From the NCBI GenBank assembly GCA_965231215.1, contig OZ246423.1, positions 896,001-960,000 on the forward strand: a DNA stretch of 64,000 nt, written 5' to 3'. Every line of letters starts with the position of its first letter. The first letter of the stretch is position 1. Both the position numbers and the translations under genes were made by a program. Shown here piece after piece: positions 14,742 through 26,840 of the stretch. The notes below the pieces were generated by a model that saw only the letters and a list, made by a program, of their open reading frames with translations, searched no databases and was not told the origin of the DNA. Source of the stretch: Candidatus Altimarinota bacterium. GTDB lineage: Bacteria; Patescibacteriota; Gracilibacteria; UBA4473.

Positions 14742-15979
14742 AACATTCCAAGCCCTATATTTTTCCAGTCATTATCACTTCCAACTCTTAATGGAGTAGT
14801 GCTATAGCCAATATAACTAGGGACGATTGATCCAAGCTCTCCATGGTTTCCACTTCCCCAACACCATAAAGCACCATCATTCTTTATCGCACAAGAGTGA
14901 GAGTATCCTGAAGCAACGCTTTCCCAAGTGTTCTCACTTCCTACCTGTGTAGGAACCCTCTTACTACCTGTATAGCGTTTTCCCTGACCAAGCTGTCCAT
15001 AGTGATCTCCCCCCCAACACCACAAAGTATTATCTGTTTTTATCGCACATAAGTGTCTTTTTCCTATACCAATACTTTTCCAAGTATCGGTACCAACCTG
15101 AACGGGAGTACTTCGATCTATAGCATCATTCTGTCCTAGTTGTCCATAACGGTTATCTCCCCAGCACCACAAGGTATTATTATTTTTAGTCGCACAGGCA
15201 AATTTATTTCCAAGGTAAATATTTTTCCAATCGTTATCGCTACCAACTTGCACAGGGCTCGGTTGGTTATCTGATGGATCATTACTACCAATTCCAAGTC
15301 TTGAATCAGAATTACTCCCCCAACACGACAAAGTATTATCAGTTGTTATTCCACAAGTATGATCTAATCCTGCTGAAACATCTTTCCAAGTACCAGGTAA
15401 TCGCTTAGGGTAATGTTCATACTCATGAATTCCTCCTTTTCTGCCTATTCCTAGCTTCCCAAGGTAAGTGTGTCCCCAACACCATAACGTATTATCATCT
15501 TTTATTGCACAAACATGTCCAGCTAAACCAAATTCTATAGTATCTGCCAGACTACTTAAGTATGAAGGACTCATTCCCCAACATTGAAGATTATTTCCAC
15601 TTGAAATAGCACAAAAGGAATTCACCCCAATTCCAACTTTGTTCCAACTACTACTTTCAAACTGCTCAGGCTCATGAGTATTTGATAATCCTGGAAGAGG
15701 TGAGCTTCCCCAGCACCAAAGAGCCTCTGGAACATGGCATGCCGAAAATTCAATATTTATGGGTTTATTATTCAGAAAAGAGTGCCATCCTGTGGTGGTT
15801 TGAGTTGGAACAAATCGTTCTTTCCCATCCAAGCTCTTAATTTTTTTACAAATTCCATGAGCATTAATTATTTTATCGGCTGTTCCAATACGGAATCCAG
15901 TAAGAATGGTATTAATTGCAAAAACCTCGTCAAAAAGAAGCAATAACGAAAGTAAGAAAAATAATTTTTTTGTTCTCAT
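14717..15979 (-). CDS. Secreted RCC1/BLIP-II-like beta-propeller protein
   Basis: Signal peptide; about 7 repeats of H.CAIK.DNTLWCWG.N.YGQLG; start overlaps the stop of the upstream fibre gene. Confidence 0.85.
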   Translation of the reverse strand: MRTKKLFFLLSLLLLFDEVFAINTILTGFRIGTADKIINAHGICKKIKSLDGKERFVPTQTTTGWHSFLNNKPINIEFSACHVPEALWCWGSSPLPGLSNTHEPEQFESSSWNKVGIGVNSFCAISSGNNLQCWGMSPSYLSSLADTIEFGLAGHVCAIKDDNTLWCWGHTYLGKLGIGRKGGIHEYEHYPKRLPGTWKDVSAGLDHTCGITTDNTLSCWGSNSDSRLGIGSNDPSDNQPSPVQVGSDNDWKNIYLGNKFACATKNNNTLWCWGDNRYGQLGQNDAIDRSTPVQVGTDTWKSIGIGKRHLCAIKTDNTLWCWGGDHYGQLGQGKRYTGSKRVPTQVGSENTWESVASGYSHSCAIKNDGALWCWGSGNHGELGSIVPSYIGYSTTPLRVGSDNDWKNIGLGMFYTCGIRE

Positions 15980-17853
15980 AGATTCATAACTTCCTTTAAT
16001 TTATTAATTTGTTCTTGTTGATTTTCAATTAATTTCTGTTGTTGATCCGTTAGTTCTTTCATTTCTTTTAAGGCCTCAACAAGTATGGCATTTATATTTC
16101 CATAGCGAACCGACTTCAGCCCATCCACCTCGCTTGTTTCTACGAGTTCTGGTAGGACTCTTTCAACATCTTGAGCAATGAAACCAATAGAATTTTTATC
16201 AGAATTATTCCATTTAAATTTAACACCTTCTAATTGCTGAATAATTTTTATTGGATTTTTGATTTTCAAAATGTCTTTTTTCAAACGCTTATCAGAGGAG
16301 TAAACAAAATCTGTTGCTAGAACTGTTCCTTCAACATCTAGCTTCTGAGAAGGGGCCGTCGTCCCAATCCCGACATTACCCGTATGCGCAACCGTCATGG
16401 AAGGTGTCCCGCCATAATAGGAATTACCAGCAGCACCATCTACATAAAACCGAATATCCCCTGCATTGGACACCAAACGTATCCAGTTGCTTCCACCTTC
16501 AGAATAAAGCCCTAAATCAGTACCAGAAGCCAACCCCGCTTTGTTGATGATGCCCTCTCGAACCCTCAAACCACCACTACCAATATCCAACGTAGCACTC
16601 GGCGTCGCCGTCCCAAGACCAATATAACCATTACCACCATCAAGCGTAAAGTGCGTATTTTCCCCAACACCACCACCCACATTAATCTTGAATTTATGAT
16701 TATCTGACTGATCCAGTCCTACAGAATACCAAGCATTCCACGGATCATGGAAACGAATTTGCGAGTCAGCATCATTATTCTCAACCTCGATATTCCCGCC
16801 GCGTATCTCTAACTTATTATCCGGATCTGCCGTCCCAATCCCGACATTGCCGCCGACAAGCGCCATGTCAGTTGCAACAGAACGTAAGATAGCCGTATTA
16901 TTACTATCTGTTGTTATATCAAGAATTCTTTGGTCACCCGCTTTATCATTATTAAAAATACTAAAAAATTGATTGTCATCTAGACTTCCTGCTGGCGCAG
17001 CGCCAAGAGCCCTGCCTGCCATTATTATCCCTGAAACATTCAACTTCGCATTAGGAGACTCCGTCCCAAGCCCGACATTGCCATTCGCTGCAATACTCAA
17101 ACCATGATACCAATTGGTACCATCATTATTATAGATAGAGAGCGCATTCGGCGCACCATAAGAAGATGGTCTCTTAACAAAATCTGTAAAGTGTGAGCCA
17201 CCATTGCTACTTTGCAAACGTAACGTATGGCCAGTATTATCCGGCGAAAGAACGTGCAACGGCAAACCAGGCGTCGCCGTCCCAATGCCAACCCTACCGG
17301 TTTCTGTCACTCGCATAAGTTCAGCCCAGTTACCGCCTGGGCCAGCGGCATTTTTTCCGATGACGAGGGCTCGGTTATCATTATCATCATTATTCCAGTC
17401 CATAGAAAGATAAACATTGTCTTCCCCATTTAGCTCTAGAGCTCCATTACTGTCATAAATAGTGCCGCCTCTTACCAGCAGTGTACCATCTATTTGAAGA
17501 TCTCCGTCTTCATCAATGTTGGCTTTATCTGCATCGGCTCCTGTTCCAATCTGAAAGAGTTTTTCATTGGCGGTAGGAGAGGCTTTGTGAATTGAAAAAT
17601 GTGCCGGAAAAGTATCGGTTCCAATACCGACTTTCCCATTAAGATAATAGAGGTCTTGACCGCTGAAATTCCAAACCTGATAGCCTAAAATATCAACAGC
17701 GGTAGAGAGGCTTAGGAGATCAGTTCTTACCTTGTTCCAATCTGAGGCCCGAATAAGTTCTCCACTATTGACAGTGGGAGTGGTTATTGTCACCGCAGCG
17801 TAAGAAGTATTTGAGAAACTGAACAACAGCCATGCAAGCAATAGAGTTCTCAT
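15976..17853 (-). CDS. Secreted tail-fibre-like adhesin A (GNVGIGT repeats, C-terminal peptidase S74 chaperone domain)
   Basis: Signal peptide; repeated G[NKR]VGIGT..P...L junctions; SSDKRLKKDI...IGFIAQDVE.VLPELV...Y..I.A.LVEALKE plus coiled coil. Confidence 0.85.
   Translation of the reverse strand: MRTLLLAWLLFSFSNTSYAAVTITTPTVNSGELIRASDWNKVRTDLLSLSTAVDILGYQVWNFSGQDLYYLNGKVGIGTDTFPAHFSIHKASPTANEKLFQIGTGADADKANIDEDGDLQIDGTLLVRGGTIYDSNGALELNGEDNVYLSMDWNNDDNDNRALVIGKNAAGPGGNWAELMRVTETGRVGIGTATPGLPLHVLSPDNTGHTLRLQSSNGGSHFTDFVKRPSSYGAPNALSIYNNDGTNWYHGLSIAANGNVGLGTESPNAKLNVSGIIMAGRALGAAPAGSLDDNQFFSIFNNDKAGDQRILDITTDSNNTAILRSVATDMALVGGNVGIGTADPDNKLEIRGGNIEVENNDADSQIRFHDPWNAWYSVGLDQSDNHKFKINVGGGVGENTHFTLDGGNGYIGLGTATPSATLDIGSGGLRVREGIINKAGLASGTDLGLYSEGGSNWIRLVSNAGDIRFYVDGAAGNSYYGGTPSMTVAHTGNVGIGTTAPSQKLDVEGTVLATDFVYSSDKRLKKDILKIKNPIKIIQQLEGVKFKWNNSDKNSIGFIAQDVERVLPELVETSEVDGLKSVRYGNINAILVEALKEMKELTDQQQKLIENQQEQINKLKEVMNL
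16364..16616. repeat. 253-bp internal cassette identical to 19152-19404
   Basis: Base-by-base comparison showed no differences; encodes ATPSATLDIGSGG...AHTGNVGIG. Confidence 0.95.
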
Positions 17854-18019: not shown

Positions 18020-20881
18020 CTATTGATTTTCCAAAGCTTCAACACGAGCTTTGAGGGCATCATTTTCAGCCTTGAGCTCTTGAATTGCTTTGACGAGGAT
18101 AGGCGCCATCTGACCATAGGCCAAAGACTTCGTGCCCATCTCATCATCCGCCGTGCTCACCAGCTCCGGCACCAAAGCCTCAACCTCTTGCGCCAAGAAA
18201 CCAACCTGATGCACTTGCTCCGCCCGCTGCGCCTCATCGATCCAATCAAACGCCACCGGCTTCATCGCCATCACCGTATCCAAACCATAATCCAGATCCA
18301 CCACATTGGTCTTCAACCGAGCATCAGAAAAAGTCGACCAAGTCGACCCCGTATTCGCCCCGCCCCCCCCACCAAGTGAGGACTGAGCCACACAATTACC
18401 TCCAGAAGTATCACAAATTTGATTCGTGCGTACTCCTCCACCGTCAGCTCGAATACCCGCCCCTGAATAAAGCCACTTATTTCCATAAACTCTCAACCAA
18501 GTAGAATCGGTCATATGGAATCCTCCTCCATAATTTTGGAAATAAATTCCATTATTTCCATTCACTCGAAGCCAATCTCCTAGAATCTGAACTCCATTAT
18601 GGATGAAAATACGCCCACCAAATGTAGCATCGTTATTTTCCATATTTATAGACAAGGGCCACTGTCCATTGTATTGACACCAATTATTACCCCCTCCAAC
18701 GCCATCATTACCACAACCTCGTAAAAAATACATTACATTAGCATTCATATGTATCATGGCCGAACGATGATCTACATCTCTAAAGTAAATGGTTGGGTAA
18801 TTACTTCGAATGGTTAACCCATTGGCATATCCATCGCCTCCATTCCCAACCTGAAGTTTGGTAGTTGGGCTTGAAGTTCCAATCCCGACATTGCCCTGCA
18901 TACCAAAATAACTTAGGTTAGGCCTAAAAACGGCATACTCTGTATATTCTCCGGGATTATCTCTCCATCTAAAAATCCTTAACCCTTGATCATAATTATC
19001 AATGGTAATTCGCCCATTTCTATTGCTTTCTGGATCAGCATTCATTAACACCATTTCACCTCCTTCAGTAGCTGTGTTTTGAGAGTCTATTCTCAAATAA
19101 TTGGTTCTCAAATCCCCAGCTACCTGTAGTTTTGAGGTTGGATTAGCGATTCCAATCCCGACATTACCCGTATGCGCAACCGTCATGGAAGGTGTCCCGC
19201 CATAATAGGAATTACCAGCAGCACCATCTACATAAAACCGAATATCCCCTGCATTGGACACCAAACGTATCCAGTTGCTTCCACCTTCAGAATAAAGCCC
19301 TAAATCAGTACCAGAAGCCAACCCCGCTTTGTTGATGATGCCCTCTCGAACCCTCAAACCACCACTACCAATATCCAACGTAGCACTCGGCGTCGCCGTC
19401 CCAATCCCGACATTACCAGAAGGTTTAATAGTTACTTTTTCAGAAAATGAACCAAAACCAATATTAGGGGCTAAGCCTTCAGTATTCCAATGTCCTAATC
19501 TTATATCTGTTGTAGAGCCTGCTGCAATAGCCGGATATTGCCCATTCTTTTTCACAAACCCTAAACGAGAATTAACACCAGAGTCAGCTCCCATATAAAT
19601 ATCCTCTCCAGTGGCTACTACATTTCCTCCAGCTACTAATTTTGTCTTGGTCCCAAAAGGGCTCGGAGATGTAGCAGTACCAGCCAGAACGATACCCCCT
19701 GTTGGGTTAAGCAGAAGATTCCTGGCGTTATTAGTCGCATTAAACTCTTTATGGTAAGCCTGTAACCAAGGCCCTCCATCAGCAACACCTATATCCATAA
19801 CATTTGTACTATTTACAGTCTGAAATCGAGCTATAGCCCCAGGACTAGGGGTAGTAGCATCTGGCAGCGATTGTCCAGACGATGTTACATGTAATTTTTC
19901 CAATGGAGTATTAGTCCCAATCCCGACATTGCCAGAAGCCCGAGTAACGTTGCTACCACTTTCTGTCCAGGTAGAACTCCCGCCACCACTACTCAAACTT
20001 CCAGCGGGAACACAGTTACCTCCATTTTGATCACAGTACTCTGTAGCGCCTATTTTCCCTTCAACATCTAGCTTTAGCCCCGAGGAGGGGCTGATTGTAC
20101 CAATCCCGATATTCCCATTTCCTAGATTCAAGGTCATCATATCACCGCCACCACCAGTAGAAGAAAATCTAGCTGTATCCTGAGCTCCTGCATAAGTTTT
20201 TATTCTTAATGAGTCTGTAGCATTACTAATAATTAAGCCGTCATCACTAGCTCCACCATTAACTTTCATATCTCCGACCACCTGAAGCGCATGAGATGGA
20301 TTTGCCGTCCCAATGCCAACCCTACCGGTTTCTGTCACTCGCATAAGTTCAGCCCAGTTACCGCCTGGGCCAGCGGCATTTTTTCCGATGACAAGGGCTC
20401 GGTTATCATTATCATCATTATTCCAGTCCATAGAAAGATAAACATTGTCTTCCCCATTTAGCTCTAGAGCTCCATTACTGTCATAAATAGTGCCGCCTCT
20501 TACCAGCAGTGTACCATCTATTTGAAGATCTCCGTCTTCATCAATGTTGGCTTTATCTGCATCGGCTCCTGTTCCAATCTGAAAGAGTTTTTCATTGGCG
20601 GTGGGAGAGGCTTTGTGAATTGAAAAATGTGCCGGAAAAGTATCGGTTCCAATACCGACTTTCCCATTAAGATAATAGAGGTCTTGACCGCTGAAATTCC
20701 AAACCTGATAGCCTAAAATATCAACAGCGGTAGAGAGGCTTAGGAGATCAGTTCTTACCTTGTTCCAATCTGAGGCCCGAATAAGTTCTCCACTATTGAC
20801 AGTGGGAGTGGTTATTGTTATCGCAGCGTAGGAAGTATTTGAGAAACTGAACAACAGCCATGCAAGCAATAGAGTTCTCAT
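18020..20881 (-). CDS. Secreted tail-fibre-like adhesin B (GNVGIGT repeats, PilV-like segment, C-terminal peptidase S74 domain)
   Basis: Same N-terminus as A; many GNVGIGT junctions; FSDARLKTNV...VGFLAQEVE.LVPELV...LVKAIQEL. Confidence 0.85.
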   Translation of the reverse strand: MRTLLLAWLLFSFSNTSYAAITITTPTVNSGELIRASDWNKVRTDLLSLSTAVDILGYQVWNFSGQDLYYLNGKVGIGTDTFPAHFSIHKASPTANEKLFQIGTGADADKANIDEDGDLQIDGTLLVRGGTIYDSNGALELNGEDNVYLSMDWNNDDNDNRALVIGKNAAGPGGNWAELMRVTETGRVGIGTANPSHALQVVGDMKVNGGASDDGLIISNATDSLRIKTYAGAQDTARFSSTGGGGDMMTLNLGNGNIGIGTISPSSGLKLDVEGKIGATEYCDQNGGNCVPAGSLSSGGGSSTWTESGSNVTRASGNVGIGTNTPLEKLHVTSSGQSLPDATTPSPGAIARFQTVNSTNVMDIGVADGGPWLQAYHKEFNATNNARNLLLNPTGGIVLAGTATSPSPFGTKTKLVAGGNVVATGEDIYMGADSGVNSRLGFVKKNGQYPAIAAGSTTDIRLGHWNTEGLAPNIGFGSFSEKVTIKPSGNVGIGTATPSATLDIGSGGLRVREGIINKAGLASGTDLGLYSEGGSNWIRLVSNAGDIRFYVDGAAGNSYYGGTPSMTVAHTGNVGIGIANPTSKLQVAGDLRTNYLRIDSQNTATEGGEMVLMNADPESNRNGRITIDNYDQGLRIFRWRDNPGEYTEYAVFRPNLSYFGMQGNVGIGTSSPTTKLQVGNGGDGYANGLTIRSNYPTIYFRDVDHRSAMIHMNANVMYFLRGCGNDGVGGGNNWCQYNGQWPLSINMENNDATFGGRIFIHNGVQILGDWLRVNGNNGIYFQNYGGGFHMTDSTWLRVYGNKWLYSGAGIRADGGGVRTNQICDTSGGNCVAQSSLGGGGGANTGSTWSTFSDARLKTNVVDLDYGLDTVMAMKPVAFDWIDEAQRAEQVHQVGFLAQEVEALVPELVSTADDEMGTKSLAYGQMAPILVKAIQELKAENDALKARVEALENQ
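19152..19404. repeat. 253-bp internal cassette identical to 16364-16616
   Basis: Direct comparison. Confidence 0.95.
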
Positions 20882-20971: not shown

Positions 20972-21113
20972 GTCCCCAACAGGATTCTCTCTAATTTTTA
21001 TGGTTTATCCTGGCATAAGATTAAAGGTTCGCCCTGCGGCTCTGAGCTGGTTTATAGTTTTCTCACTACAATAACTATCACCGAGGAATCCTCCGCTGTT
21101 AGTTCCTATCTCA

Positions 21114-24100
21114 TTAGTTTTTACGGCAATAGAGTACGGCGACATTCTTTGGTCGGGTTTCAGCGCCACCAACGGCGTTTGATGCATTCGCAATGACGCC
21201 GTTATTATAGCCTCGTTGATAATGCCCGCCAAAGGACCAACCGCTGCCATTATAGGAATTTTGCGGAATATGCTCGTGTGACTTAAATTCATCTTCTTGC
21301 GTGCTTCCCGGCGCTCTCACCCCGCCAGGGTCAATGGTTCCGGTGCTGTCAATACCCCGCAAGAAGCGTCCGCGTGCAGCGGTATATTCGCTCCATCCAG
21401 CAGGGCAGGACGTCAAGTCAAACGCCTGAATCTCTCCAGAAATTCGGCCGCCACCCGAACTGCCGCCGGAGCTGCCGAAATAGCCACAACGGCCCTCATC
21501 ACAAATATCGGCCAAATCCACACCGGCACCATCCGTGGCACCACAACGGGTGCTTAAACCACTAATACCAGAAATATTTCCAGTTCCATCAAAGGCGATA
21601 TACCGATTAAAATTCCCTACAATTGCATACCAAACCGAGTCATTCTTGTGTTCCGACATAACCAGAATCTGACCCCATGTTCCCGAGCTGTAATTACACA
21701 TCAAGTAATCCGGCCACTTCGAAACACCCGCAGGCGCGACCGGTAACTTCAGTGTCGACGCAAGATTAGACCCCGCGATAGCATCAGAAATAGCCGCCCC
21801 CGAACTCGAACCCGACCCGCCGCCGGGTACAACTTTATATACCTTATAATCCACCGTGCCGCCGCAGCCTGCATTGTTGTAGATGGTCATGGAGATTTTA
21901 CTCGAGCCATCCGTTCCAAAGGTGGCGTACATATAGCCGCAGCCTGCCGTGCTATAGGTCGGTTCAAGTGCGGCGATGTATTCGTAACCGTTTGCTAGCC
22001 CCGTTACGGCAGAGGCGTATGAATTACCTGGGACAGTGGCGGTACCGGACGCTACTTCTTCCAGCCCCAGTGCGCTGCCACCCCCCGAACTCGACCCGCC
22101 GCCACCGAAATAGATGACTTTACCTTCGCTGATGAGCGTATCTATCGATTTGCCGTTACAGTCTGAGCCGGTGGCATGCGTCTGATAAGCCGCAGTCTGC
22201 GCCTTAGTCGTGGGATGGAAGATGAACTGCGCATTGTCCGAATCACTCGGGTCGGAATTCGCGACATAATAGACGCCGTTGGTTGCGTGGTCATGATCGG
22301 CGATAAACATTCGTGTGTAGCCATTTTGCGTACATTTTAGCGCATCCGGCCAGCCGGATTTGAACACACCGGTTGGTGTGCTCGAACTCGACGAACCCGA
22401 GCTGCCGCCGACTTTAAAGCCGGAGAAATGGGATTCCCTTACGGTTCGTGCGGTGCCGCCATTGTGATAGACAATGACTTCAACCACATCATTGGCATTG
22501 AGATAGGCTATTCCAGAACAGCTAAATGCTCCTGAATTGCCTGACACTGTGGTGTTATGTCGCGCATAACAAATACTATCTGCTGCCGCGGATTTGCCAG
22601 CATGATTCTTCTGAATTCTAATGATTTGATCGGAGCCAGAGGCCTCAATTTCAGCAGAGGCGTTAAATTGGTAAAAACCTGTTGACGGCACGGTAAATTT
22701 GCCGGTTGATGTATCGTAATTGTTGCCTCCCTCCTCCTGTATCTCGGTCGCAAAAACAAGGTCGGACCATGTATTGTGTGTGGCAGTTTGTGTCCCATCC
22801 CCAATCGCCTGGAATGAAACAGCCGACCCCCCACCCGAACTCGACGAACCCGACCCGCCGCAGTTTTTCTGGAGCGATGTGACGGCAGAGTCGGTGCTAT
22901 AACTTGCTGTCCCTTCAGTACGATAGCGACGCGTACCCTTAGCGCTGCTTTGAATCGTATATTCAAAGTTAGTGCCAGAACTCGCAAAATCCACGAAGAA
23001 TATCTCAGCAGCTTTTACTTTATAGGCATACATAATATTGCCACTACCCTGCTCTGCACGATAGTCGCAGCTTGTATCAAAACTATTAGTATCACTTAGG
23101 CTGACCTCTTCCCAGCCCCCACCCAAACTCGACGAACCCGATCCGCCGCTTCCCCATTCCTTCCAGGCAATGGTTTTGAACTGTAGGGTCTGCGCATATT
23201 GTTGGTCGTTGGAGGCGACTTCAAACAAGGTCGTGTGATAGCTGAACATGATATTGGTGGCGTCGTAGCCCAGAGCGGAGCCGCGCTTGGTGGCACCGCC
23301 GTTGAATTGGTTGCCGTCGGAGCTGAGATGCTGGGTGATATTGCCGGAGCTGTCCTTTAAATACCCGACCGCAAAGACCGGCTCGGCCCCGAACCCATGC
23401 GCGAAGTTGCGGGTATTCGTCCCGGCTGCCAGCGTCACCCAGCCGGAATCGAAGTCCGGCGTGCCAAGCGCACCGCCGGTGCCACTGCCGCCCGAACCCG
23501 ACCCGCCGCCGGACATTTTGAAGCCGGAGAAATGGGTGTGGTAGGCGCCTGCGCTTCCATACGGGGTTTCAGCGCCGGCAGCCCGAATGTCGATCTGGTC
23601 GCCCGCTGTCAGTTCCAGAATGAAGGAGGCATCGCTTCGCCGATATCTAACACTGCCGCCAACGCCTCCGTAGGATGCGATCAGCATGTTGACGCCATTT
23701 TTATAGACCCAGTAGTCTGAGTTGTCTGTATTGTTCTGCCCCAGAATCTCATAGGAGAAATGATAGGTGCCGTCGGACGGGGCGACATAGCGGTTGTTGG
23801 TGAGGTCGAAATCATCACCGATATTGGTCAGCGCCAGATCCCAGGTCACGACATCACCGGTAGACGCGGACTGATGTGCGGTTTTGACGACGGTGAAGGC
23901 GGATTCCGGCGTCGACGAACTTGATCCACCGCCAGAGCTGCCGCCGCCGAGCATGTAGCCGTAGAAGAGACTATCGGCTGGATGTCCAAGATTCACACGC
24001 CCGCGATTGCTGAAATAGATACTGAGTTCATCATTCACCGCCGCATCAATCAACACACATCCAGAATTTGTTTCTGCGTTCGGATTGTTATATTGGCTGG

Positions 24101-26840
24101 ACTGTCCACCATTAACAACAGCGCCATTCTTATGAATTTCCGTGTGGAACTCAGCATTATTATGATTGTAATATTGCCAACAGACATTGTAGATCCCCTT
24201 CGTCGGCACCGTATAAATCCCCGTCGTAGCATCAAAACCACTATCCGTGTCCAAATCCACCGTGTCATAAACCATGGCCCCCGCACCACTTTGCACCGCC
24301 GTCTGACGCGCTGAAAACGCCACCGGAGAAGCAGAATCTGATCCACCGCTAGACCCCGACCCGCCGCCGGAACCAAGGAGATACGCTTTCATCGTCGCGG
24401 CAACAGACGGCGTAGCATCGTTGCTATGTGCAATAACACTAAGATAATCGGTCGTACCGTTCATCTCCACAACTTGTGTAATACTGTGATAAGCATCACT
24501 ACCATTAAGGTTTACATATCCAGAATCGTTAGCAACAGATGCACCATTTTTGCTAATAGTCGTAGAACACCACTTATTCGCATCGATACTCCGGCAAACA
24601 ACATTGGCTATCACGAGATATTTACCGGCAACATTCGGGGTAAAACGCCCTGTCGCCGTGTCATGCAAATTTCTGGAATCGGAACCCACTGAGTCAAGAA
24701 CAATCTCTGTCCATGCATTCTGCGGTATCGACTTCGCCGCCGAAGTTGCAACATGAACATAAACCTCCTCCCCCGAAGAACCACCGCTAGACCCCGAACC
24801 GCCGCCGGAGATTTTGAAGCCGGAGAAGTGGGTGTTTGCGCCTTCCAGATTGATCGAGGCGCCGTTAGTATTATACCCAGAAACCTGAACCACATCTCCT
24901 GCAGCCAGTTCTACCACGGCAGAGCAGGATGGTGCGTGGTCAAGGTTTGAATTTTTACCTCTAGCACTGCTGAGACAGAGCGTTTCGATATTGCCACCAC
25001 CCAAATCCTTATAGATGCGTATCAACAGACCATTATTATTGGAGCTGCCATTCATCAAACTCGACGTAAATAGATAGGTACCAGTACTTGGGGCGGTAAA
25101 TTTTCCGGTTGAGGCGTTGTAATTTGAACCGCCATTTTGATGTTGTATCGTTGGAAAGATTGTATTTGCCCAGGTCTGTGAGGCAATTGATGTAGTCGAA
25201 CCTGTCGCCCTGAATGAAATTTCTTCACCCGAACCGCCCGAGCTGCCGCCGCAGTTTTTCTCGACTTGATTGACCGTGAAGCTTCCTCCCCAAGAGGCAC
25301 CCGTTCTGAGATTGTAGCTATTTTTGCTGCCTTTGGGGATGCGGAACTCGATCTCCGTACCGCTGGAATTCCATTGGGTAAAGTAGGCGTAATCGGCAGC
25401 GACCAATGTCGCGTAAAATTTTTGTCCGCCTGAGGGGCTATCCAATGTCGTACGATAATCGCAGGCAGTGTCAAAGTCTGCCGTGTCGCTTAGGCTGACC
25501 TCTTCCCAGCCGCCGCCACTACTCCCTCCACTCGCTAGGGATCCCCAAGTTGATCCATCACAGACTTGGACTGCCCCTCCTTGGTATCGGATTGTTCCGG
25601 CTTTCGTGTTGTCACAGGCAGCTGTATCATCTCCAATCTTGACTCCTCCAGCTATATCTAATAGCGCTGCTGGAGTAGCGGTTCCTATCCCTACTTGACC
25701 ATCTTCATCGACTCTCATTAATTCTACCCAATTGTCTCCTGGGCCCGGACTATTCTTTCCTATAATTAAGGCTCTTGTGTCTACATCATTGTTATTCCAG
25801 TCCATTCCGATGTAAATGTCATCTTCTCCACTTAATTCTAGGTTTCCGTAACTATCATAAACATCGCTGCCTCGTACCAATAAATCTCCATCCAAAAAGA
25901 CGTCTCCGTCTTCATCTATGGCGAATCTATTATCGTCTCCACTAATGCCTACCTGAACCAGTACTTGGTTGGCCGCAGGAGTATCCTGGTAGACATAAAA
26001 GTTTGCTCCAGGACTAGTAAGGCCTATCCCGACCTTTCCACTACTATAATGAATGTCTCCTGAGGGGCTGCCCTCTTCCCACTTTCCGCCTCCTAAAACT
26101 TCCCAACTACTTCCATCATAATAAAAATATTCATTACTTGAAGTATTGTAATATGTATCTCCTGCATCTGGGCTCTCTGGCGGAGTTGTATCAGTCACGG
26201 AGTTACTAATTTCTACCCAGCTACTTCCATTATAAAAATAGATTTGATTATCTGTTGTATTATAAAAAACATCTCCTTCACTGCCACTGCCTGGATTACT
26301 CCCCCCACGCTGAATAGCACTTGCGCCGCCTCCGCTTGCAATGCTGGAGGCTACGTCCGAGGGCACTACACAATTATTTCCCAAAGCATCACAGTATTCT
26401 ACGGCTCCCACTTTTCCTGCTATGTCTAGTTTTAGTCCTGGACTTATACTCGAGGTACCAATACCTACATTACCTAAGGGGTAATTAATATCACTAGAGG
26501 ATTTTATCCAATACTGTTCTGGAAGATTGGTCAATTGTGATCCATCTCCTATAAATCTAGTGGCTTTTACGTTTCCGTTTACCTCTAGTTTTTGGGTTGG
26601 TGAAGCTGATTCTAGGCCAATTCCAAATCGATCATCACCTAAAGCGCTGGTGCCTTGATCATTTCGTTTAAGCCCCTTCACTACATTTACTAAAGTATTT
26701 AGCTCTGTAGCGGTAAAAGCATCTCCCGTTTCTTTTGCGGGTATAGACGAGGCATCATATTCTGCGGCTTTAACTGGCTCAAATACAGTCAAAACGGTCA
26801 TAAGTACTATCACGCAAACGCTAAGAGAGATGTGGCGCAT
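21114..26840 (-). CDS. Giant secreted mosaic fibre/adhesin C (1908 aa): fibre stalk, ~12 Gly/Ser-linked modules (several C1q-like), terminal tail-collar-like domain
   Basis: Signal peptide; GNVGIG stalk; modules with TGKFTAP..G.Y.F and HFSGFK (C1q-like); C-terminus GEIQAF...CPAGW...GRFLRG...GSTQEDEFKSH.H...ETRPKNVAVLYCRK typical of phage tail-collar proteins. Confidence 0.8.
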   Translation of the reverse strand: MRHISLSVCVIVLMTVLTVFEPVKAAEYDASSIPAKETGDAFTATELNTLVNVVKGLKRNDQGTSALGDDRFGIGLESASPTQKLEVNGNVKATRFIGDGSQLTNLPEQYWIKSSSDINYPLGNVGIGTSSISPGLKLDIAGKVGAVEYCDALGNNCVVPSDVASSIASGGGASAIQRGGSNPGSGSEGDVFYNTTDNQIYFYNGSSWVEISNSVTDTTPPESPDAGDTYYNTSSNEYFYYDGSSWEVLGGGKWEEGSPSGDIHYSSGKVGIGLTSPGANFYVYQDTPAANQVLVQVGISGDDNRFAIDEDGDVFLDGDLLVRGSDVYDSYGNLELSGEDDIYIGMDWNNNDVDTRALIIGKNSPGPGDNWVELMRVDEDGQVGIGTATPAALLDIAGGVKIGDDTAACDNTKAGTIRYQGGAVQVCDGSTWGSLASGGSSGGGWEEVSLSDTADFDTACDYRTTLDSPSGGQKFYATLVAADYAYFTQWNSSGTEIEFRIPKGSKNSYNLRTGASWGGSFTVNQVEKNCGGSSGGSGEEISFRATGSTTSIASQTWANTIFPTIQHQNGGSNYNASTGKFTAPSTGTYLFTSSLMNGSSNNNGLLIRIYKDLGGGNIETLCLSSARGKNSNLDHAPSCSAVVELAAGDVVQVSGYNTNGASINLEGANTHFSGFKISGGGSGSSGGSSGEEVYVHVATSAAKSIPQNAWTEIVLDSVGSDSRNLHDTATGRFTPNVAGKYLVIANVVCRSIDANKWCSTTISKNGASVANDSGYVNLNGSDAYHSITQVVEMNGTTDYLSVIAHSNDATPSVAATMKAYLLGSGGGSGSSGGSDSASPVAFSARQTAVQSGAGAMVYDTVDLDTDSGFDATTGIYTVPTKGIYNVCWQYYNHNNAEFHTEIHKNGAVVNGGQSSQYNNPNAETNSGCVLIDAAVNDELSIYFSNRGRVNLGHPADSLFYGYMLGGGSSGGGSSSSTPESAFTVVKTAHQSASTGDVVTWDLALTNIGDDFDLTNNRYVAPSDGTYHFSYEILGQNNTDNSDYWVYKNGVNMLIASYGGVGGSVRYRRSDASFILELTAGDQIDIRAAGAETPYGSAGAYHTHFSGFKMSGGGSGSGGSGTGGALGTPDFDSGWVTLAAGTNTRNFAHGFGAEPVFAVGYLKDSSGNITQHLSSDGNQFNGGATKRGSALGYDATNIMFSYHTTLFEVASNDQQYAQTLQFKTIAWKEWGSGGSGSSSLGGGWEEVSLSDTNSFDTSCDYRAEQGSGNIMYAYKVKAAEIFFVDFASSGTNFEYTIQSSAKGTRRYRTEGTASYSTDSAVTSLQKNCGGSGSSSSGGGSAVSFQAIGDGTQTATHNTWSDLVFATEIQEEGGNNYDTSTGKFTVPSTGFYQFNASAEIEASGSDQIIRIQKNHAGKSAAADSICYARHNTTVSGNSGAFSCSGIAYLNANDVVEVIVYHNGGTARTVRESHFSGFKVGGSSGSSSSSTPTGVFKSGWPDALKCTQNGYTRMFIADHDHATNGVYYVANSDPSDSDNAQFIFHPTTKAQTAAYQTHATGSDCNGKSIDTLISEGKVIYFGGGGSSSGGGSALGLEEVASGTATVPGNSYASAVTGLANGYEYIAALEPTYSTAGCGYMYATFGTDGSSKISMTIYNNAGCGGTVDYKVYKVVPGGGSGSSSGAAISDAIAGSNLASTLKLPVAPAGVSKWPDYLMCNYSSGTWGQILVMSEHKNDSVWYAIVGNFNRYIAFDGTGNISGISGLSTRCGATDGAGVDLADICDEGRCGYFGSSGGSSGGGRISGEIQAFDLTSCPAGWSEYTAARGRFLRGIDSTGTIDPGGVRAPGSTQEDEFKSHEHIPQNSYNGSGWSFGGHYQRGYNNGVIANASNAVGGAETRPKNVAVLYCRKN
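26071..26762. repeat. ~690-bp constant region of fibre C, inverted paralogous copy at 63058-63749
   Basis: Colinear and ungapped, high identity by eye (roughly 85-90%). Confidence 0.9.

Follow-up and report, generated by a model that had tools for sequence, protein, structure and literature searches.

Linker DNA repeats and conserved module ends in a mosaic C1q-containing fibre gene of a Candidatus Altimarinota bacterium

What keeps the ends of protein modules alike at the DNA level while their interiors are only weakly similar? The question is raised by a gene on contig OZ246423.1 of a Candidatus Altimarinota bacterium, whose closed genome comprises 1,326,059 bp at 39.9% G+C. The stretch analysed, here called the window, is 64,000 nucleotides (nt) long and spans positions 896001-960000 of that genome. 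A preliminary description of the window had noted 'sister modules' at 22405-25511 and had likened their shared ends to those of segmental gene-conversion systems. That interval lies entirely within a single open reading frame (ORF) of 1,908 amino acids (aa; P0001), and the sister modules are not separate genes or cassettes; instead they are consecutive domains of this one ORF. We consider it probable, if well short of certain, that their ends were kept alike by recombination seeded at the junctions between modules, together with short-tract conversion, in a young and lineage-specific mosaic adhesin gene.

P0001 starts with a signal-peptide-like segment within a 436-aa N-terminal part, the 'stalk', which is followed by 12 modules in the order A1, C1, C2, C3, C4, X1, A2, C5, Y1, Z1, Y2 and T. 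Twelve Gly/Ser linkers of 8-13 residues each (L1 to L12) stand between these 13 parts. Five of the modules are C1q-like and two are 'WEEVSL' (A) domains. The coordinates of all parts and repeats are given in Table 1.

The repeats at the module ends were all recovered. The exact 23-mer at the start of the two A modules and the exact 16-mer at their end were found by self-repeat search, by blastn and by a genome-wide pattern search, and the 37-mers at the ends of C4 (23503-23539) and C1 (24799-24835) match at 35/37 nt, as had been claimed. The third, partial copy at the end of C5 is also real: it aligns with the C4 end at 84% identity over 44 nt, including a gap, and with the C1 end at 90% over 20 nt. 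Interior similarity is indeed weak: nucleotide identity is 0.39 for A1/A2 and 0.37 for C1/C4, and over the core modules identical residues amount to 38 of 83 aligned for A1/A2 (43% by tblastn) and to 35 of 131 for C1/C4. Because independent Logan contigs match the sequence with 0 differences, an assembly artefact is ruled out. These contigs, which drop rare variants, come from three runs on two samples of one study; they cover 21100-23799 and 23874-25605 and include both copies of each repeat.

A search for further modules with the same ends, as suggested in the preliminary description, gave a divided result. For the WEEVSL class nothing was added, as the A-type ends occur only twice each in the genome (23-mer at up to 4 mismatches, 16-mer at up to 2), always within the same ORF. 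For the C1q class the 37-mer is found four times; the two extra copies close full-length paralogues with signal peptides of their own.

The repeats are concentrated at the linkers. In a blastn comparison of the gene with itself, 37 of the 45 in-frame repeats listed touch a linker or its adjoining codons, among them the 10 strongest and every pair of at least 90% identity over at least 23 nt. The C1q-end tracts continue into the linker, as seen when the C1 end plus L3 is set against the C4 end plus L6; the A-module tracts extend no further than the first or last one or two linker codons. Eight of the 66 possible linker pairs share at least five identical consecutive codons. When Gly and Ser codons were shuffled among the linkers, the mean number of such pairs was 0.27 and the maximum 3, with none of 2000 shuffles reaching the observed 8. 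Moreover, an 18-nt linker core (GGC GGC GGG TCG GGT TCG) has seven occurrences in the genome at up to 2 mismatches, all of them in the P0001 gene. Codon choice differs as well: the linkers use GGC for 34 of 71 Gly and TCG for 27 of 57 Ser, and the N-terminal part uses GGA for 35 of 58 Gly and TCG for only 3 of 43 Ser. The linkers are thus a family of near-identical in-frame DNA repeats confined to this gene. Since they form a repeat family with a codon dialect of their own, the junctions do not consist of class-specific handles alone; a common junction repeat is joined by the neighbouring conserved module edge. The proposal that each module class has its own exchange handles was therefore overstated, as the tracts join linker DNA that is common to all module classes.

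Ends and interiors are not equally diverged at synonymous sites, which agrees with the preliminary description. The proportion of synonymous differences (pS, Nei-Gojobori) between A1 and A2 is 0.40 at the ends and about 1.0, that is saturated, in the interior; between C1 and C4 it is 0.21 over the last 8 codons and 0.71 in the interior. The same contrast is seen at identical degenerate residues, where A1 and A2 use the same codon at 9 of 11 positions within 8 codons of either end and at 4 of 26 inside (Fisher 0.00024). Corresponding figures for ends and inside are 8/10 and 10/25 for C1/C4, and 7/8 and 8/27 for C4/C5. Module pairs lacking the HFSGFK end show no contrast between end and interior, and in the interior of C1/C5 the same codon is used at 22 of 42 identical residues (14.3 expected). 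To assess chance, the synonymous codons of each module were permuted in 2000 shuffles for each of 12 pairs, and in-register runs were scored. A longest run at least as long as the 23 nt of A1/A2 arose in 5 of 2000 shuffles, and the two longest runs together equalled or exceeded the observed sum in 1 of 2000. The longest run was reached in 29 of 2000 for C1/C4 and in 40 of 2000 for C4/C5. For the remaining 9 of the 12 pairs it was reached in 372-1981 of 2000, and the two-run sum in 140-1981 of 2000, except for Y1/Y2 (42 of 2000, uncorrected).

At the protein level, the domain family as a whole combines conserved ends with divergent interiors, as a structural feature. When ten A domains from different sources are aligned, the positions that are invariant or nearly so cluster in the first 18 residues (W1, V4, L6, D8, F12, D13, C16, Y18) and the last three (K84, C86), with W1, V4, D8, D13, C16, Y18 and C86 invariant. 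The domain has a start of the form W-E/V-D/E-V-P/S-L...C.YR, an end of the form ...EKNC and two invariant Cys. Likewise, HFSGFK-like ends also close C1q modules in distant proteins. The codons are another matter. Three A domains in one Gracilibacteria record (L017) share the start motif in different codons, and an Absconditabacteria A domain has the same peptide, WEEVSLSDTADF, in other codons. The A1 and A2 starts both encode Leu by CTA, where a related record with an identical peptide has a different codon. Selection at the nucleotide level common to the family is ruled out for the A start, as other genomes use other codons for the motif.

Among the C1q modules, C1 carries the clearest mosaic, conversion-type signature. 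Its tail matches the C4 family at 35-36 of 39 nt and C5 at only 26 of 39, whereas its interior is closest to C5 (38% aa identity, against 27% to C4).

P0001 belongs to a genomic family of secreted fibre genes, two of which lie directly downstream (15976-17853 and 18020-20881) and four more at genome positions 954928-970193. With two paralogues, G1232 and G1236, it shares 95.3% DNA identity over aa 1-211 (blastn) and 93-94% over aa 383-440, where the similarity stops inside L1 at 25521. A further shared block comprises C4 and the first SGGG of L6 (23501-23903), for which blastn gives 88-89% DNA identity, and tblastn 81-82% aa identity, to the terminal module in both paralogues. Its 5′ edge lies about three codons past the upstream linker, inside the module, and its 3′ edge lies inside L6. 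Loose contig ends at 23501 and 25521 coincide with the C4 and L1 similarity edges. At the C1 end there is a 37-nt island that matches the G1232 end at 36/37 nt, and the C1 interior has no blastn match to G1232. These patterns suggest that modules move as units among the paralogues, with breaks within linkers.

Both G1232 and G1236 stop at a TAA right behind an SGGG linker, and a further module, with RCC1-like repeats, continues out of frame (genome 965380-965520 and 970120-970330). The 310-aa ORF after G1232 largely repeats, from about residue 224, the C-terminus of an 868-aa paralogue; after G1236 the out-of-frame remnant meets a stop after about 88 residues. The continuation could reflect a frameshift inside the linker, a decaying extension or a recoding site.

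The composition of P0001 sets it apart from its genome. G+C at third codon positions (GC3) is 0.32 in the N-terminal part and 0.40-0.77 in the modules, and adjacent modules differ widely. Against a genome mean of 0.339 (sd 0.048, 758 ORFs), the P0001 gene is second-highest of the 758. None of 40 related genomes yielded the A domain, and searches of 25 relatives with the whole protein did not recover the modular part; 7 of those 25 gave matches, only within residues 1-471. In a complete genome of the same genus (L030, G004:C1:1096000-1110000) the interval between the genes for an RCC1-like protein and malic enzyme holds only a 635-aa orthologue of the first fibre gene. The 953-aa and 1,908-aa genes are thus extra at the locus compared with that genome, and in a second genome of the genus the same interval has no ORF of 200 aa or more. 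The same kinds of module (C1q types, Y, T and a Cys-containing connector) are found, arranged in a different sequence along the chain, in other giant proteins at up to 51% identity, including a Brucella anthropi protein that NCBI calls a tail fiber domain-containing protein. In one such protein (P0002) six connectors match at 21-24 of 24 residues; junction elements are near-identical within such proteins. Two large protein searches returned no close homologue of P0001, a best module identity of 51% and no protein with the same module order. We conclude that the P0001 gene is a young, lineage-specific mosaic in which a duplicated native N-terminus is combined with modules of foreign and heterogeneous composition. 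No description of C1q fibre proteins of this kind in Peregrinibacteria or Patescibacteria was found in the open-access literature.

Table 1. Parts of the P0001 gene and repeat tracts within it. Positions are those of the window.
Feature	Position	Strand	Remarks
Single ORF, 1,908 aa, P0001	21114-26840	-	holds all repeat features; ORF list, translation, Pfam
N-terminal 436 aa, signal peptide (predicted) and 'stalk' common to paralogues	25533-26840	-	native codon usage, GC3 0.32
Module A1, 'WEEVSL' domain, aa 445-530	25251-25508	-	GC3 0.605
Module C1, C1q-like, aa 539-677	24810-25226	-	Pfam
Module C2, C1q-like, aa 691-822; without HFSGFK end	24375-24770	-	Pfam
Module C3, C1q/BclA_C-like, aa 835-964; without HFSGFK end	23949-24338	-	Pfam, sub-threshold
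Module C4, C1q-like, aa 977-1109; cassette common to C-termini of G1232 and G1236	23514-23912	-	GC3 0.669
Module X1, aa 1121-1229	23154-23480	-	GC3 0.771, most atypical module
Module A2, second 'WEEVSL' domain, aa 1243-1327	22860-23114	-	GC3 0.424
Module C5, C1q-like, aa 1340-1477; interior sister of C1	22410-22823	-	38% aa identity to C1
Modules Y1 (22107-22379), Z1 (21825-22073), Y2 (21477-21797) and T (21117-21446)	21117-22379	-	linkers L10-L12 between
A-start tract, copy 1: last Gly codon of L1 + W-E-E-V-S-L-S (2 nt)	25489-25511	-	exact 23-mer; blastn, pattern search
A-start tract, copy 2: end of L7 + A2 start	23095-23117	-	blastn, pattern search
A-end tract, copy 1: (E)KNC + first two Gly codons of L2	25246-25261	-	exact 16-mer; blastn, pattern search
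A-end tract, copy 2: (Q)KNC + start of L8	22855-22870	-	blastn, pattern search
C1 end T-H-F-S-G-F-K-I + first 6 codons of L3	24793-24835	-	93% over 43 nt to C4 end + L6
C4 end T-H-F-S-G-F-K-M + first 6 codons of L6	23497-23539	-	partner of C1 end + L3
C5 end S-H-F-S-G-F-K-V + start of L9	22392-22432	-	third, weaker copy, 84% over 44 nt with gap
L3 DNA	24781-24809	-	97% over 29 nt to L4; pair brackets C2
L4 DNA	24343-24371	-	partner of L3
L7 DNA	23116-23149	-	94% over 34 nt to last A2 codon + L8; direct repeats bracketing A2
Last A2 codon + L8 DNA	22828-22861	-	partner of L7

In the explanation that we favour, a native stalk is followed by 12 autonomous beta-domain modules. The first and last strands of each domain type form the conserved structural core of its family (the A edges, and the ...HFSGFK end of the C1q modules), and the linker repeats with the adjoining conserved edges supply tracts of near-identity of 20-45 nt. 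In bacteria, homologous recombination is usually said to need at least about this length to be efficient, and RecA is encoded in the genome. RecA-type recombination might start and end in these linker and edge tracts, and the resulting exchange could copy, swap, duplicate or delete whole modules, both within the gene and between the paralogous fibre genes. Short conversion tracts would also spill from a linker into the neighbouring module edge, which would keep the edges younger than the interiors. We infer that recombination at the tracts is the cause of the pattern and that it took place in this lineage rather than in a donor. Gene conversion, as put forward in the preliminary description, would then hold in the form of junction-seeded recombination and concerted evolution within a mosaic gene; as a programmed cassette system it does not.

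Several observations weigh against this explanation. Eight of the 45 in-frame repeats, of 12-20 nt, lie away from linkers, in module interiors or in the N-terminal part, and the A-start tract enters the linker by its last Gly codon only, the two preceding codons being different. After 12-fold correction the shuffle test is significant for A1/A2 alone (about 0.03 for the longest run and 0.006 for the two-run sum) and the C1q pairs fail; moreover, the test was suggested by the same data, so that its figures are optimistic. The sites are few, with 8.7 synonymous sites and 11 informative codons at the A1/A2 ends. C4 and its paralogous copies are evenly diverged (pS 0.20 inside, 0.18 at the ends), with no extra homogenisation of the ends, although even divergence is what is expected of a whole-cassette copy. 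No joint between repeats was seen in the contigs, in which rare variants are dropped, and the sequence was identical in the two samples and three runs. Finally, no close relative was found by which any event could be dated or polarised.

Chance combined with constraint on the protein could in principle produce shared ends, if conserved amino acids took the same codons by luck and A1-C1/A2-C5 were an old tandem duplicate without later recombination. The end motifs are, after all, the most conserved part of all ten aligned A domains, and HFSGFK-like ends recur in distant C1q modules; the informative sites are few, the C1q pairs lose significance on correction, and the block spacing of 2391-2403 nt fits an old duplication of two modules. 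We nevertheless regard this account as quite unlikely, for with the protein and the codon usage of each module held fixed the A runs were hardly ever reached, synonymous sites are saturated in the interiors and not at the ends, A1 and A2 share a CTA codon that is not found for this peptide in a related record, the C1 tail is nearer to C4 than to its interior sister C5, and the similarity of linker DNA exceeds that in all 2000 shuffles. It is also possible that the tracts are scars, the array having been built by linker-mediated shuffling in a higher-GC lineage, acquired largely in one piece and fused to the native N-terminus, with no exchange now. The foreign GC3 and the foreign Gly/Ser codon dialect of the modular part would fit such an origin, as would its absence from 25 relatives, the lack of the gene at the syntenic position in the congener, the confinement of the linker core to the P0001 gene, the identical sequence in two samples, and the similar module kits of other organisms, including the Brucella anthropi protein. 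However, the spread of GC3 among adjacent modules, and between A1 and A2 themselves, points to several acquisitions or to different residence times; C4 and the N-terminal segments are 88-95% identical to same-genome paralogues with breaks in linkers, which indicates that some exchange was intragenomic; and no sampled protein has the same module order or a module identity above 51%. On balance the scar account is unlikely.

Programmed conversion from silent cassettes through class-specific handles, of the pilE/pilS, vlsE or msp2 type, is very improbable. Conserved flanks with lower synonymous divergence do surround divergent cores, the gene sits within a multigene surface-protein family with mosaic similarity, an out-of-frame module follows the stop behind SGGG in G1232 and G1236, and small host-dependent bacteria may plausibly need surface variation. 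Yet no archive exists in the genome: tblastn of all 13 parts against the 1.33-Mb sequence gave no further copy of A, X1, Y1, Y2, Z1, T or C3, searches with the end sequences returned no silent cassettes either, and the analogy to these systems drawn in the preliminary description fails accordingly. The flanks are not shared between an expression site and silent copies, since both A-type end pairs lie within one ORF, and the two extra C-type ends belong to full-length genes. With interiors only 39% identical in nucleotides, an exchange of the A modules would swap two old, fixed variants and draw on no repertoire. That the contigs of two samples contain no rearranged form speaks weakly against fast switching. 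There is practically no chance that the module interiors are mutagenised by a diversity-generating retroelement while their ends stay conserved. The genome does hold a neighbouring pair of ORFs with reverse-transcriptase domains (327388-329326; RVT_1, 75.9 and 51.5 bits), about 590 kb away, which may belong to a group II intron, a retron or such an element, but blastn of the 10 kb around them gave no template-like match in the P0001 gene (marginal best matches elsewhere in the fibre regions, E 0.02-0.85), and the sister modules, about 39% identical, have differences at every base type, unlike adenine-specific variants of a template of about 90% identity. P0001 is ruled out as a target of such an element. 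A bolder version of the favoured explanation would treat linker DNA and edge codons as a selected 'junction grammar', that is, a standard set of in-frame handles by which receptor-binding modules, including horizontally acquired ones, are plugged into and out of the surface fibres of a genome-reduced, host-dependent bacterium; this is an unlikely proposition. It is equally unlikely that modules are shared in this way among paralogues and among lineages with the same kit, so that attachment is retargeted without a cassette archive.

Among known systems the closest parallel is the mosaicism of phage tail fibres and not pilE/pilS. Phage tail-fibre adhesins are described as mosaics in which hypervariable segments are set apart by short conserved motifs, glycine-rich or other, with exchanges falling in these motifs or near them (PMC3157838). 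Two features of such mosaic fibres are present in P0001, where short conserved junction motifs flank divergent segments and the shared segments end at or near junctions (L6, L1 and the C1 island). As in the gp37/gp38 adhesins of T-even phages, glycine-rich junction motifs part divergent recognition segments, exchanged segments end near the motifs, and new receptor-binding combinations may result. Unlike those adhesins, P0001 is encoded in the chromosome of a small-genome bacterium and has a putative signal peptide, and its units are whole autonomous domains on flexible linkers rather than loops of one domain; the glycine-rich motifs of gp38 form a structural core, whereas the Gly/Ser stretches of P0001 are linkers. 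In IMG/VR no relative was found with two queries, the A-domain alignment and the C4 module, phage-tail structural genes not being searched for. The neighbouring genes that were read encode the fibre paralogues, an RCC1-like protein, a glycosyltransferase and malic enzyme.

C1q and S74 domains occur in the fibres of extracellular contractile injection systems (eCIS), for which modular evolution by horizontal acquisition is described (PMC12923769). C1q-domain proteins are also presented as hypervariable host-recognition proteins of marine phages (PMC3909814). P0001 and its siblings resemble these phage and eCIS fibres in their C1q heads, which may be receptor-binding modules, in the S74 chaperone that here ends the sibling gene at 18020-20881, and in apparent horizontal acquisition. 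They differ in that P0001 has a Sec-type N-terminus, and five C1q modules in series are unusual against a single terminal head. In pilE/pilS, vlsE and msp2, segments are converted from silent cassettes, and such systems may have dedicated cis elements, for example a G-quadruplex upstream of pilE or inverted repeats at vlsE. The conserved flanks, variable cores and surface location are alike in P0001, as is an apparently more recent DNA ancestry of the flanks; the cassettes, and the division into expression site and archive, are missing, the partners are domains of the same ORF or full-length paralogues, and no switching was observed. In polymorphic toxin, Rhs and contact-dependent inhibition loci, C-terminal modules behind a conserved motif are exchanged with cassettes. 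P0001 would have in common with them the principle of a conserved junction at which the module behind it can be replaced by recombination; however, neither toxin domains nor immunity genes nor standalone cassettes were detected, and there are many junctions per gene and not one. BclA-type fibres likewise carry a C1q/TNF-like jelly-roll head on a bacterial surface filament, and C3 has a weak BclA_C match, but P0001 lacks a collagen-like GXX repeat region and has several heads in series.

The finding reveals no new kind of variation system. If the favoured explanation is correct, the gene would be a clear cellular example of domain shuffling in progress, in which a native stalk is extended by a dozen foreign receptor-binding modules, and the linkers would double as protein spacers and as DNA homology for exchange. 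Surface fibres of small host-dependent bacteria are prime candidates for host attachment, so that turnover of their specificity modules is worth knowing, and the junction architecture offers a natural template for modular binders.

P0001 is probably a secreted, fibre-like, multi-module surface protein and an adhesin, whose C1q-type heads probably bind a receptor or ligand. Its hydrophobic N-terminus, ending in ...VKA/AE, resembles a signal peptide. The Pfam family C1q (PF00386) was matched in four stretches at 152.5 bits, passing the curated cut-off of 23.7; the fifth C1q-type module, C3, gave only a BclA_C signal of 26.6 bits, under the cut-off of 38. The modules A, X1, Z1, Y2 and T have no family in a Pfam search at E≤1. 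A reading of the last module as a phage 'tail collar' domain was not borne out, the Pfam search at E≤1 giving only a spurious match. For X1 a protein atlas gave a weak language-model lead to phage hypothetical and H-lectin-like clusters, and for the A domain it gave no usable match.

The 86-aa 'WEEVSL' domain is of practical value in its own right, as a confidently modelled beta domain without a Pfam family or PDB fold match. An AlphaFold2 model of A1 predicts an all-beta fold with a mean pLDDT (the program's per-residue confidence measure) of 91.3, and no PDB fold matched it at E≤0.001, the best TM-score being 0.42. Among 1.84 billion representative proteins, a profile search yielded only 26 matches at E≤0.001. 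Several of these resemble pilins and have a prepilin-type N-terminus, or else are small secreted proteins from records of the Gracilibacteria/Absconditabacteria type (code 25). All genome records found to hold relatives of the domain belong to Candidatus Gracilibacteria and Absconditabacteria. Scans of metagenomes and genome contigs found only 8 distant loci, several of which need genetic code 25, and multi-module replicate material among them is limited to the three A domains of L017. A metagenome contig (L019, 5,222 nt) carries a tandem array of small genes that is readable only with TGA as Gly. All of them encode a membrane or signal segment together with a conserved LYVNNNETL..AAKRN motif, and their A-like domains end in ...KLQKKCQ.

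Smaller irregularities were noted along the fibre genes. At 26093-26208, in the N-terminal repeat region of P0001, contigs of two runs skip 114 nt, which fits a 114-nt direct repeat (26099-26166 and 26213-26280, 72% identity); the skipping contigs may stem from paralogues without one repeat unit or represent a length variant. Across the repeat region of G1236 runs a 534-aa antisense ORF (genome 968328-969932, minus strand), most likely an artefact of high-G+C, repetitive coding sequence on the opposite strand. Mosaicism extends to the two downstream genes, at 15976-17853 (625 aa) and 18020-20881 (953 aa). Their proteins are near-identical over the N-terminal 195 or so residues, with one difference seen, and diverge beyond them; some internal segments are common to both as well, such as GNVGIGTATPSATLDIGSGGLRV.... 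The 953-aa protein, encoded on the minus strand, ends in a Peptidase_S74 chaperone module that is identical at 75 of 100 residues to the C-terminus of an otherwise unrelated metagenomic protein of 1,624 aa (P0004). GC3 is 0.63 in the last 60-codon bin of this gene and 0.22-0.40 elsewhere in it, and the terminal S74 module looks like another horizontally acquired module.

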